Of a DNA stretch of 64,000 nucleotides, positions 39,995-48,404 are shown piece after piece. Positions within the stretch are counted from its first letter, which is position 1, and each line of letters starts with the position of its first letter. This stretch comes from a virus. Taxonomy: Duplodnaviria > Caudoviricetes. Made by a program: the position numbers and the translations under genes. The stretch covers positions 96,001 to 160,000 of the IMG/VR virus record IMGVR_UViG_3300038443_002533; one strand, given 5' to 3'. A model generated the notes under the pieces. It was not told where the DNA came from, searched no databases, and saw only the letters and a program-made list of their open reading frames with translations.

Positions 39995-40258
39995 ATGACG
40001 CAAACACGCTTGGAGTCGTTAATTGAATCGATCGTTAATGTGGTGATTGGTTTTGGGATAAATTACTTCGCGAATTTCGTGATCTTTCCCCATTTCGGGT
40101 TTCATCTTAGCGCCAGTGCAAATCTCGCGATGGGGGCTATCTACACGGTCATCAGCGTAACGCGATCGTATTGCATCCGACGTTGGTTCAACAATCACCT
40201 TAACGCCATGACACGGGCTTTAGCGACATTCATCATCCGAATCCGTTCTAATGCTTAA
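39995..40258 (+). CDS. Small two-TM phage membrane protein
   Basis: QTR.ESLIE...N...GF.I...IFP.FG...YCIRRWFN pattern, common in phages. Confidence 0.7.
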   Translation: MTQTRLESLIESIVNVVIGFGINYFANFVIFPHFGFHLSASANLAMGAIYTVISVTRSYCIRRWFNNHLNAMTRALATFIIRIRSNA

Positions 40259-40294
40259 TGTAATGGTTTTATTAATTACACTGGACTAGGAGTC

Positions 40295-40546
40295 ATGATG
40301 AAAGAAGCAGTCAAATGGTGTCTGTTTTTCGCCTGCGTCGTAGTGATAACGAACCAAGTGTTCGCCGCGCGACCCGCCCAAGCAGGTTCGATTGCGCCAC
40401 CGGTAAGTGAATTCACCTACACCACTTCCGCTGGTCAAAAAATCCACGTGAACTCGTGGACCCGCGGCGCAGTGCAATGTACGGCGTTGTCGACCGATGC
40501 CGCAAGAAGTACCGAAATTCCCCTCGCGATTTCCTGCACACAGTAA
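40295..40546 (+). CDS. Small secreted protein, paralog of 44207
   Basis: Signal peptide ending in AQA; SW....C...(I/V)SC motif. Confidence 0.65.
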   Translation: MMKEAVKWCLFFACVVVITNQVFAARPAQAGSIAPPVSEFTYTTSAGQKIHVNSWTRGAVQCTALSTDAARSTEIPLAISCTQ

Positions 40547-40622
40547 TCCCAGTACCCCCATACGCGAGAGGGGGCAACCCTTCTTCGTATGCCATCATTT
40601 TCTCACCCACCAAGGAAACCAC

Positions 40623-44805: not shown

Positions 44806-45381
44806 ATGAACACCACGAAAAGCACCGAAGCCAAGATCAAACTGAACAACTTCAATTTCGACTCGCACGAAGTCAATCTGATCCATCGTCAATTCAGCGG
44901 AGAACGGACCCAGTTCATTTCGACCATCGATGAACTGCTGCGCTGCTGGGCCATGGCTGATTCGACCAACCCGAACATCCAGTTCAACTATGAACTCCTC
45001 TCGCGCGTCGAGAATGGCAAAGCGGTGAACCGTGAACAGCTGTACGAGGCTGACCATGTTTCGGTTTTCTTCCAACACGTCTCGGAAAAAACGGCGGTGC
45101 CGATTGCCGCGACACTGAACGCTCCGAAGCAGCTGACCAAGCTGTACGACCTGGCGTTCACCAATGCCCGTCCGACGCTGCCGGCGCATACCGTGGCGTC
45201 CCACTTCACTCTGCGCGAAGTGCTGGCCCGCGCTGCGGAATACGCAGTCATGGTTACCGTTAACGGTACGACCCTGAGCGTATTCGTCTCGGAAAGTGAA
45301 ATCAATCACTACATGTATTTCGACCTGAAACTGTTCGGCGATCTGAAGCCGTTCGTGGACCAGGTCAACGCCGCACAGTAA
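44806..45381 (+). CDS. Hypothetical protein
   Basis: 191 aa, ATAATCAACAATAGGAA leader, typical codon bias. Confidence 0.7.
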   Translation: MNTTKSTEAKIKLNNFNFDSHEVNLIHRQFSGERTQFISTIDELLRCWAMADSTNPNIQFNYELLSRVENGKAVNREQLYEADHVSVFFQHVSEKTAVPIAATLNAPKQLTKLYDLAFTNARPTLPAHTVASHFTLREVLARAAEYAVMVTVNGTTLSVFVSESEINHYMYFDLKLFGDLKPFVDQVNAAQ

Positions 45382-45445
45382 CGGCATCATCCTGCCTCCC
45401 ATCCCCCTGTTTGGGTGGGAGGATTCTATGACCTAAAGGACTATC

Positions 45446-45583
45446 ATGGATAAGAAATACTACGCCGACGGTTGGCGTGCACGGTGCAAGAACGAGCCGT
45501 TCGATCCTAATGCGTCCGCCGATTGGCAAGACGGTTGGAATGACCGCAACGAAGCGCCACAGGAAGAAACGGTGCCGGTATGA
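45446..45583 (+). CDS. RMF-like microprotein 1 (45 aa, below the ORF-track cutoff)
   Basis: AAGGA RBS; MDKKYYADGWRARCKNEPFDPNASADWQDGWNDRNEAPQEETVPV. Confidence 0.65.
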   Translation: MDKKYYADGWRARCKNEPFDPNASADWQDGWNDRNEAPQEETVPV

Positions 45584-45717
45584 GGGCAACCGCTTTTGAA
45601 GTGGGGTTTCATGCGTTTTGCAAATACCAGCCCTTCGACGTCTCGCAATCGCAAGAGTGGAAAAATGGCTGGATTCACGCACAAGCCTTAGAACAACAAA
45701 TCTTAACCACTGGCTAG
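45580..45717 (+). CDS. RMF-like microprotein 2 (45 aa)
   Basis: ATGA overlap; MRATAFEVGFHAFCKYQPFDVSQSQEWKNGWIHAQALEQQILTTG. Confidence 0.6.
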   Translation: MRATAFEVGFHAFCKYQPFDVSQSQEWKNGWIHAQALEQQILTTG

Positions 45718-45727
45718 GAAAACCAAC

Positions 45728-45898
45728 ATGTCCAAAACTAAATCGAATAGCATCGAGAACTTATTGTTCGCGCTGGTTATCGGACTCGCGTTCTGCTTCG
45801 ATCGGCGACAAGAGCCCGAAGAAGAGATCAACTTCGGTTGGATCGCGGTCTGGGTCGTCGCTATCGCCATCATCGGGTACTGGAAGCATTATGCGTGA
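45728..45898 (+). CDS. 56 aa two-TM microprotein
   Basis: AGGAA RBS; MSKTKSNSIENLLFALVIGLAFCFDRRQEPEEEINFGWIAVWVVAIAIIGYWKHYA. Confidence 0.55.
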   Translation: MSKTKSNSIENLLFALVIGLAFCFDRRQEPEEEINFGWIAVWVVAIAIIGYWKHYA

Positions 45899-46487
45899 GC
45901 TGACTCTTCAGGAACGGTTGATCGCGGTGGAGTTGGCGAGCCGCCACTACATCCCCAGCGCTACGGTGCAACACCCACAAGGCGTGATCGTGCCGGGCGA
46001 TAAGTTCATGACGGACAAACTGCGCGACCCGGACTATGTACCGTATTGCTTGGCCTGTTCGCCTGCTCAACGGCTGCGTCGCATCGAAGAAGGGTTTCAA
46101 TGCCCGTGCTGCAACACCAAAGCGAATTGGGATCTGACTACCTTCAACGACAACGTCGACGTCGAGTTCGAACCTGAACACGCGGAAGCTGGCGATATCG
46201 CGAGGATGAAGTTGCGTGCCGCTAAAATCGCGGCAGAACAACTCATCCGCGAGACGCCGGCTTATCCGCCCCGTTACTGGGGCGAGGATGAAGGTAAGAA
46301 GAATACGTCGCTGCACGCGTGCGGTAAGTGCGGGGAAACGTTCTTCGGCAAGAACAAGCGGAAGTACTGCAAGATCTGCCAAACGCCGATCAGTGCCAAT
46401 CAAGCTATTGAACAAAGAGCGAGGCAGCGTCATCCTTACATGGAACCGCCGGCCGCTGTGAATCGTAAGGAGCGTCGTCGTGGGTGA
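45891..46487 (+). CDS. Zinc-ribbon protein with four CxxC pairs
   Basis: Start moved to 45891; CLAC, CPCC, CGKC, CKIC. Confidence 0.65.
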   Translation: MRELTLQERLIAVELASRHYIPSATVQHPQGVIVPGDKFMTDKLRDPDYVPYCLACSPAQRLRRIEEGFQCPCCNTKANWDLTTFNDNVDVEFEPEHAEAGDIARMKLRAAKIAAEQLIRETPAYPPRYWGEDEGKKNTSLHACGKCGETFFGKNKRKYCKICQTPISANQAIEQRARQRHPYMEPPAAVNRKERRRG

Positions 46488-46653
46488 TTTTTCGGTGGTA
46501 CTTAAAACCCTCCAGGGTGGGAAGAAGTTTTATAGCCAAGGCTGGAATGCCCGGGTGAACAACGAGCCTTACGATCAACAAGCCTCACCCGATTGGAAAA
46601 TCGGTTGGCGTGACTGTGAGGCGACTCCACCAGAAGAACGTAGCCTGGTTTAA
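46480..46653 (+). CDS. RMF-like microprotein 3 (57 aa, GTG start)
   Basis: AAGGAG RBS; ...KKFYSQGWNARVNNEPYDQQASPDWKIGWRDCEATPPEERSLV. Confidence 0.6.
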   Translation: MGDFSVVLKTLQGGKKFYSQGWNARVNNEPYDQQASPDWKIGWRDCEATPPEERSLV

Positions 46654-46836: not shown

Positions 46837-47742
46837 ATGGGTGTCTATCAAATTTGGACCGTACAGATGTCGCGCAGCCGTAATTTGAAAGACAAAGGCA
46901 TCCATGCCCTCGACACGACGGTAAAATCCGGCATCAAAGCGTTTGCGCCCAAGTGGGACATGGTTATGGCGCATAAAGAGCAAAGGCTCTCGGACGCGCA
47001 GTATACAGACCAGTACACCCGCATGATGCGGGAGTCACGGCAGAATAACCACACTATCTGGAAGAAATTACAAGATCATGAGAAAACTGCTGTTCTTTGT
47101 TATTGCAGCCCAGGTAAGTTTTGCCATCGCCATCTTTTTATTCATGAAATGAAAGATTACCTGGAGAGTTTGGGCCACACGGTCGAACTTAAAGGGGAAA
47201 TCAACGGGCCGCAGTATTACAGTGAGATCCCGAAAGCGGTGGTCTCCATTCCCCGTGACGAAAAGATTGTTCCGTTTTATAGCAAGTACGATTTGTTGTC
47301 GAATCACAACCCTTCAGGTTTTACCATCAAAGGGGTGACGTTTAAGCATGTCGAGCAATTCATGATGTATTGCAAGGCGATGCTGTTTAACGACAAACTC
47401 CAAGCGGGTTTGATTCTGGCAGAACCCGATCCGCAGAAGTGTAAGATATTGGGACGGGGTGTTAGGCCGTTCGATGAAGCGTTGTGGGTGTCGAAGCGGC
47501 GACGCTATGTGTATCTCGGCTGTTTGCAAAAGGCCCGGGAGCACAAAGAAGTGCGCGATTATCTGTTGTCGACAGGTAATGCGATTTTGGTGGAAGCTAG
47601 TCCACGCGATACGATATGGGGCGTAGGGATCGCTAAGGAAGATCCGCGCATCTACGATATCGAGCAATGGCAGGGATTGAATTTACTGGGAGAGATCTGG
47701 ATGGAAGTGCGCCGGGTCTTACAAGCGGAAGTGGTATTCTAA
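46837..47742 (+). CDS. DUF488-like domain fused to a NADAR (YbiA-family) ADP-ribosyl hydrolase
   Basis: N-terminal FAPKWDMV...LCYC...FCHRH; C-terminal LSN..VEQF...KAMLFND...LGR.V..FD...LL.TG...LVEASP.D.IWG.G...GLNLLG. Confidence 0.85.
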   Translation: MGVYQIWTVQMSRSRNLKDKGIHALDTTVKSGIKAFAPKWDMVMAHKEQRLSDAQYTDQYTRMMRESRQNNHTIWKKLQDHEKTAVLCYCSPGKFCHRHLFIHEMKDYLESLGHTVELKGEINGPQYYSEIPKAVVSIPRDEKIVPFYSKYDLLSNHNPSGFTIKGVTFKHVEQFMMYCKAMLFNDKLQAGLILAEPDPQKCKILGRGVRPFDEALWVSKRRRYVYLGCLQKAREHKEVRDYLLSTGNAILVEASPRDTIWGVGIAKEDPRIYDIEQWQGLNLLGEIWMEVRRVLQAEVVF

Positions 47743-47753
47743 CGGAGAAAAAG

Positions 47754-48404
47754 GTGTTCTACAAAGCCTTTCAGCAGTACGTCCAAACCAAATGGCGAAA
47801 AATGTATAACGACCTGTACGATCTGGTCGAAGGATTTATGTTCGCGGTACTCATCACTGCGTTGGCGCAACCATGGTTGATTCACGTCAATGACTGGTTG
47901 CTGGACACGCGCACCATCGTGCCGGTGTACCTCACACTGTGGACTGTGGGCATGGCCTTGATGCCGCCGCTGCGGATGTTGCTCTCCGCATTCTGCTACG
48001 GGTGCCGGTTTTATGGTGATTATGAAATCATCCATGGCACCTTCGGCTACCGCGCGTTTCGCGTGACCCCGGCCCAACAAGAATACCTTGCACTGTATTA
48101 CGAGAAGCGTCCTCGTAAGAAAGAACTTATCATCGCCTCCGCCATCATCGATGGCTCGGGTACGATCTGGTGTGTGGAAAAACCTGGACGCCATCACCAC
48201 TGCATCTGGTACATGGCACAACACGCTGCCAACAAACAAGAACACACCCAAGGTTTTCTGACCAACCAATATCGTTTCATCGGGCGGGAAGCCGGTCGAC
48301 TGCTGGCCCTGCATACGGGTCAAGTCAAACGCACGGACCACGATGAGGATCTGTTCTCAGAAGACCTGTGGGACACCCCCGAACACCTTCGCTATAAAGG
48401 TTAA
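47754..48404 (+). CDS. Membrane protein with a conserved phage C-terminal domain
   Basis: GTG start with GGAG RBS; two TM segments; RHHH...QGFLT...F..RE...LFSEDLW. Confidence 0.6.
   Translation: MFYKAFQQYVQTKWRKMYNDLYDLVEGFMFAVLITALAQPWLIHVNDWLLDTRTIVPVYLTLWTVGMALMPPLRMLLSAFCYGCRFYGDYEIIHGTFGYRAFRVTPAQQEYLALYYEKRPRKKELIIASAIIDGSGTIWCVEKPGRHHHCIWYMAQHAANKQEHTQGFLTNQYRFIGREAGRLLALHTGQVKRTDHDEDLFSEDLWDTPEHLRYKG

Follow-up and report, generated by a model that had tools for sequence, protein, structure and literature searches.

Three paralogous jumbo-phage microproteins of an apparently widespread family resembling ribosome modulation factor in scaffold and differing from it in charge

Ribosome modulation factor (RMF) is among the closest described counterparts of the small phage proteins considered here. 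In RMF, helix 1 inserts between helices h28 and h37/h40 of the 16S rRNA, the conserved residues Arg3, Lys5, Arg8, Arg11, and Arg15 form bonds with the backbone of the 16S rRNA, and the linker and helix 2 hold the anti-SD (anti-Shine-Dalgarno) end; besides rRNA, the factor contacts the ribosomal proteins S1, S7, and S21, and RMF-dependent 100S formation has been described for gamma-proteobacteria (Beckert et al., bioRxiv 10.1101/382572). Here, we analyze three small open reading frames (ORF1 to ORF3) in a 64,000-nucleotide stretch, hereafter the window (bases 96001-160000; GC content, 55%), of the IMG/VR virus record IMGVR_UViG_3300038443_002533. The record comprises 272,470 bp, carries direct terminal repeats, and is rated 100% complete; the virus is a jumbo phage. 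From a motif common to the three ORFs, an initial annotation had proposed that their products may mimic or antagonize RMF. Our comparisons place them in a widespread, uncharacterized phage family distinct from RMF, and they are probably not ribosome hibernation factors, because they carry the opposite charge and lack the residues with which RMF grips RNA.

Three genes and their phage family

ORF1, ORF2, and ORF3 are real paralogous genes. Their coordinates, lengths (45, 45, and 57 aa), and translation signals proved to be as initially annotated, with ribosome-binding sites (RBSs) AAGGA and AAGGAG located 7 to 8 nt upstream of the ORF1 and ORF3 starts, respectively, and with the ORF2 start overlapping the ORF1 stop as ATGA. 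The common motif is equally sound: G9, A12, P18, D20, S24, W27, G30, and W31 are invariant and at fixed spacing in the alignment of the three proteins, and the motif defines a family of 205 cluster representatives at E ≤ 1e-3 (14 at E ≤ 1e-10) in an exhaustive HMMER profile search of 1.84 billion proteins. Family members are mostly 41 to 70 aa long and largely metagenomic, with the consensus F-Y-D-Q-G-W-N-A-R-x-x-G-E-P-F-D-x-x-A-S-x-D-W-x-D-G-W-x-D-C. A word-indexed search returned a single relative (71%) besides the proteins of the window itself.

The genome holds three copies of the family, all within 1.2 kb. ORF1 and ORF3 are 54% identical, and ORF2 shares 32 to 48% with the other two. For each of them, a relative found elsewhere is closer than the paralogues in the window: P0004 for ORF1 (73%), P0011 for ORF2 (66%, with a common LTT tail), and P0008 and P0012 for ORF3 (each 56% over the full length). 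This suggests that the copies predate the split between these phages. Nonsynonymous differences are fewer than synonymous ones between ORF1 and ORF3 (pN 0.32, pS 0.61), and synonymous sites are saturated in both pairs that include ORF2. The AlphaFold2 model of ORF1, built with the family alignment, has a predicted local distance difference test (pLDDT) score of 87.5, with 34 of the 45 residues at 90 or above, and consists of two helices (residues 6-14 and 25-36) joined by a ten-residue linker that contains P-F-D. The 57-aa protein P0003, encoded on a separate contig of 3,579 bp, is identical to ORF3 except at one residue (T to V); therefore, a near-identical phage has been sampled elsewhere.

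Cultured phages of Pseudomonas and Rhizobium also carry members, labeled as hypothetical or left without annotation, and the cluster look-up of the family yielded no informative names. The relative in the N4-like Pseudomonas phage phCDa is gene 33, a 45-aa hypothetical protein encoded inside a long run of small hypothetical genes, while the Rhizobium phages that carry relatives are T4-like. In one of them, RHph_I42 (MN988540.1, approximately 40129-40596), a 155-aa ORF combines an N-terminal family domain with a hydrophobic C-terminal segment; it falls in a gap of the deposited annotation, and the place matches in four sister Rhizobium phages. Sixteen IMG/VR loci, on contigs of 5 to 106 kb, contain one copy each within runs of small genes, and a search with Pfam for a recurrent partner among 79 neighbor proteins of these loci found none, the neighbors being ordinary phage genes. 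When the full records of five of these phages were searched, four held one copy and the fifth held one copy plus a weak second, so the initial description of a small expanded family fits the three copies found here. An existing phage protein family, phrog_20222, is matched by 32 of 121 members at E ≤ 0.01 (best, 1.8e-5) and weakly by ORF1 (E 0.081) and ORF2 (E 0.011), with no match for ORF3.

Several members contain more than one unit. Some have two units (e.g., P0007 and P0058), and others have five to seven (P0006, 305 aa; P0028, 279 aa; P0040, 216 aa; P0135, 268 aa; P0151, 181 aa). The latter are metagenomic proteins made of tandem copies of the family's helix-linker-helix unit of about 30 residues; they have no Pfam domain and may represent an undescribed helical repeat. 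In the longer members, the fusion partners likewise lack a Pfam domain. The model of a two-unit protein reached a predicted TM score (pTM) of 0.56, at which the packing of the units is not established.

Kinship with RMF and its limits

The likeness to RMF extends to the fold and the scaffold motif and fails at the level of family models. At E ≤ 10, ORF1 to ORF3 match none of the RMF/CrpP models of Pfam and NCBIfam (including PF04957, NF011162, NF041886, and NF041856), PF04957 finds no match in any of the six frames of the phage genome, and a four-sequence profile does not retrieve RMF from the PDB sequences; the PHROG scan of the three proteins likewise yields neither RMF nor CrpP. Against a single RMF sequence, hhalign gave a probability of 7.7% and covered the W-x-x-GW part alone. 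For broader comparison we used a set made of E. coli rmf (from NC_000913) and collected RMFs. Aligned with 105 of these, the family places ORF1 residues 7-37 onto RMF residues 14-50 (P 0.0015; probability, 16.9%), in a register that covers the whole core and sets G-W-x-A on G-Y-Q-A, P-F on P-Y, and W-x-x-G-W on W-L-G-G-W. The profile comparison suggested by the initial annotation gives an alignment in register over the complete core, and none of the three proteins attains the cut-off of an RMF or CrpP model.

Weak matches of individual members point in the same direction. Scanned singly, 21 of 121 members match Pfam RMF at E ≤ 1 (best, 7e-4), and the next family is matched by 6; all these matches are subthreshold, and a given family should appear at E = 1 by chance in roughly one of 24,736 queries. 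The leading NCBIfam families, again weakly matched, are RMF (7 of 121 members), CrpP-related (2), and Rmf/CrpP (1), the last two at E of approximately 0.045. Reciprocally, real RMFs score a median of 7.6 bits with the family hidden Markov model (HMM), a value that 26 of 10,500 composition-matched shuffles attain, and reversed RMF sequences score at most 0.8 bits. The RMF profile gives at least 5 bits to 15 of 121 members compared with 54 of 12,100 shuffles, the best of the three window proteins being ORF2, with 10.0 bits.

In a structure search with one family member, RMF, the target named beforehand, ranked 1 of 48,161 chains; searches with the 45-residue ORF1 model were uninformative. The first neighbors in BFVD are the phCDa protein (45 aa; 47% identity; root mean square deviation [rmsd], 0.3 Å) and Gp48 of Burkholderia phage Bcep781 (rmsd, 0.4 Å), and among the 50 matches listed there are three phage proteins labeled "ribosome modulation factor." Look-alikes of the fold are also carried by Burkholderia and Caulobacter phages in this database. 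The ESM Atlas provided leads below 0.9 only, with one viral cluster in which 11% of the members carry PF04957. A literature search for phage RMF-like proteins or CrpP-RMF links found nothing relevant.

How far these data reach can be judged by considering what else might produce them. Very short ORFs, under the usual gene-calling cut-offs, invite the suspicion of chance open frames; with 205 representatives in the family, a relative of its own for each paralogue, RBSs, pN below pS, and confident folds, we regard this explanation as extremely improbable. Convergence deserves more weight. An independent helix-linker-helix family could have come to place Gly, Ala, Pro, and Trp residues similarly by chance, with no common ancestry. 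It would then have to account for a motif order and a register that agree with RMF over the whole core, for the enrichment over shuffles, for the concentration of 21 of 121 Pfam matches on one family, and for the first rank of a target chosen in advance, and we deem it unlikely. The two-helix fold and the G-Y-x-A, P-Y, and W-x-x-G-W residues of the RMF scaffold are all found in the family, and common ancestry or a shared fold with RMF is, in our estimate, quite probable.

The surface of these proteins separates them from RMF. The aligned core begins at RMF residue 14, leaving R3, K5, R8, and R11 to its N-terminal side; over the 15 residues that precede the conserved Gly, the net charge is −1 in the family versus +5 in RMF. 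Immediately before this Gly, at the position of RMF Arg15, 88 of 95 RMFs have R or K, while the family has mostly E, Q, A, or D there, with R in 4 of 120 among the residues listed, and ORF1 to ORF3 have Asp, Val, or Gln. Gly and Trp lie 18 residues apart in 111 of 120 family members versus 24 in 91 of 95 RMFs. The median net charge and isoelectric point (pI) are −4 and 4.7 in the family versus +6 and 10.5 in RMF, ORF2 and ORF3 each having a net charge of −1. ORF1 to ORF3 stay below the RMF model cut-off and depart from RMF in their basic contact residues, in strong basicity, and in linker length.

A possible role as protein binders

We favor, with some confidence, the view that ORF1 to ORF3 form a branch of the RMF (Rmf/CrpP) helix-linker-helix fold that is acidic and has a short linker, and that they bind a protein partner. 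The shared residues are G-[WYF]-x-A (helix 1), P-[FY]-D (linker), and S-x-[DE]-W-x-x-G-W (beginning of helix 2). The likeness to RMF would be explained if they constitute the scaffold that holds the hairpin, with Gly and Ala packing the helices, a Pro-aromatic linker, a Ser cap, and a Trp core. With a negative surface, and lacking the basic helix segment at the N terminus that RMF places between helices of the 16S rRNA, these proteins would not silence ribosomes in the manner of RMF; they are more likely to be small stoichiometric binders of a host or phage protein. They appear to be encoded in an accessory, counterdefense-rich gene block of the phage, and host takeover or counterdefense is the likeliest setting for their role, since the block includes a confirmed NADAR fusion. 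Moreover, the ATGA translational coupling of ORF1 and ORF2, together with the fused two- to seven-unit forms found elsewhere, leads us to speculate that these two products may act as a pair or an oligomer.

Could the ribosome nevertheless be the target? The proteins might be functional ribosome factors that occupy or disturb the RMF pocket of the 30S subunit, or that bind and sequester host RMF or HPF, so that ribosomes are kept active or silent during infection. Such a role would make sense of the fold and scaffold motif shared with RMF, an acidic copy could in principle pair with the basic RMF, and RMF itself touches S1, S7, and S21, not rRNA alone. However, RMF's basic anchoring residues are either missing or reversed, and the linker, which in RMF gives the anti-SD contact its shape, is shorter by six residues. 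Relatives are found in Rhizobium phages and look-alikes in Burkholderia and Caulobacter phages, and we know of no RMF in these hosts. RMF-dependent 100S ribosomes, moreover, are a gamma-proteobacterial feature as described (Beckert et al.). The initial proposal of mimicry or antagonism of RMF on the ribosome consequently found no support in the acidic character of the proteins, the missing N-terminal basic helix segment, and the replaced Arg15, and we consider the ribosome-factor reading improbable; a ribosomal target reached through ribosomal proteins has, in our view, a similarly small likelihood. Still more speculative is a generalization in which RMF-fold proteins of the acidic, short-linker type would form a class of binders of ribosomes or hibernation factors across phages; the three copies would be directed at different variants of the host, and the proteins of seven units would represent a new helical repeat built from this unit. 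By docking on the S1/S7/S21 pocket or sequestering host hibernation factors, such proteins would make dormant ribosomes serve the phage; to this scenario we give very little credence.

Genomic setting and comparison with known systems

The genes from ORF1 to the NADAR fusion run in one direction and are tightly packed (Table 1), and the neighbors named in the initial annotation, namely, a transmembrane (TM) microprotein, a zinc-ribbon-like Cys-pair protein, and the downstream NADAR fusion, are all in place. In Pfam, PHROG, and NCBIfam scans, the two-TM ORF has no family match and the Cys-pair protein has weak zinc-finger matches only; no relatives of the latter were found in viral or metagenome contigs. 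Searches of these contigs for relatives of the locus, by motif profile and by the Cys-pair neighbor, found none, and the 3-kb region had no blastn match among phage records.

Table 1. Features of the ORF1-to-NADAR region (window positions)
Feature	Position	Strand	Remarks
Hairpin, GC-rich, 10 bp	45395-45422	+	Between the 191-aa gene and ORF1; fold −22.1 kcal/mol; no T tract
ORF1, acidic RMF-fold (probable) microprotein, 45 aa	45446-45583	+	ATG start; AAGGA RBS; net charge −4, pI 4.4
ORF2, divergent paralogue (GF.AF variant), 45 aa	45580-45717	+	ATG start
Microprotein with two hydrophobic segments, 56 aa	45728-45898	+	From the ORF list; between ORF2 and the Cys-pair protein
Protein with two CxxC-type pairs (zinc-ribbon-like), 198 aa	45891-46487	+	ATG overlaps the stop of the TM ORF
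ORF3, paralogue with a 12-residue N-terminal extension, 57 aa	46480-46653	+	GTG start after AAGGAG
ORF between ORF3 and the NADAR fusion, 55 aa	46659-46826	+	Weak DUF3283 match only
DUF488-N3a-NADAR fusion	46837-47742	+	Pfam NADAR 2.1e-42, DUF488-N3a 3.5e-12; last gene of the codirectional run

A listed ORF of 289 aa (45618-46487, plus strand) is the frame of the Cys-pair protein extended upstream over ORF2 and the TM ORF; its first 91 residues are R/S rich and have an out-of-frame appearance, and a gene caller that favors length would bury two microproteins under it. Beyond the run, a 245-aa ORF with a hydrophobic stretch (47667-48404, plus strand) shares, as listed, 76 bases with the end of the NADAR fusion, and its true start is therefore probably located further downstream. 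Upstream of the run, the 191-aa ORF at 44806-45381 (plus strand) has no significant match in Pfam or PHROGs. The hairpin that follows it is not called by the terminator scan, because it has no T tract, and its stability is not significant relative to shuffles (z −1.46); it is a possible unit boundary. Promoter and terminator scanning otherwise remained at background level.

Microproteins of fewer than 60 aa are routinely missed in phage annotation; ORF1 to ORF3 had not been called as genes, nor is their Rhizobium phage relative annotated. The family that emerges when such genes are brought together is large and coherent; its fold is predicted with confidence, its link to a known ribosome factor can be tested, and naming its members "ribosome modulation factor" from the motif would be wrong. 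If a partner were found, it would provide a role for hundreds of phage genes, and the three-copy cluster in this counterdefense-rich jumbo-phage block is a convenient starting place.

Among known systems, RMF (PF04957, NF011162; PDB ID 4V8G; E. coli b0953) resembles ORF1 to ORF3 in size (about 45 to 57 aa), in helix-linker-helix topology, and in the identical order of the motifs G-[YW]-x-A (helix 1), P-[YF] (linker), and W-x-x-G-W (helix 2). In contrast to RMF, the present family has a linker six residues shorter and lacks the basic N-terminal helix segment, is borne by phages, has three copies in this genome, and includes fused and repeat forms. The Rmf/CrpP and CrpP-related proteins (NF041886 and NF041856), whose function is unproven, are likewise small, located on mobile DNA, and built on a common scaffold; ORF1 to ORF3 do not match their models at E ≤ 10, and a few family members touch them weakly. 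A third group comprises PHROG 20222, phCDa gene 33, and Bcep781 Gp48, which have no assigned function and occur as single copies, whereas the jumbo phage described here carries three.
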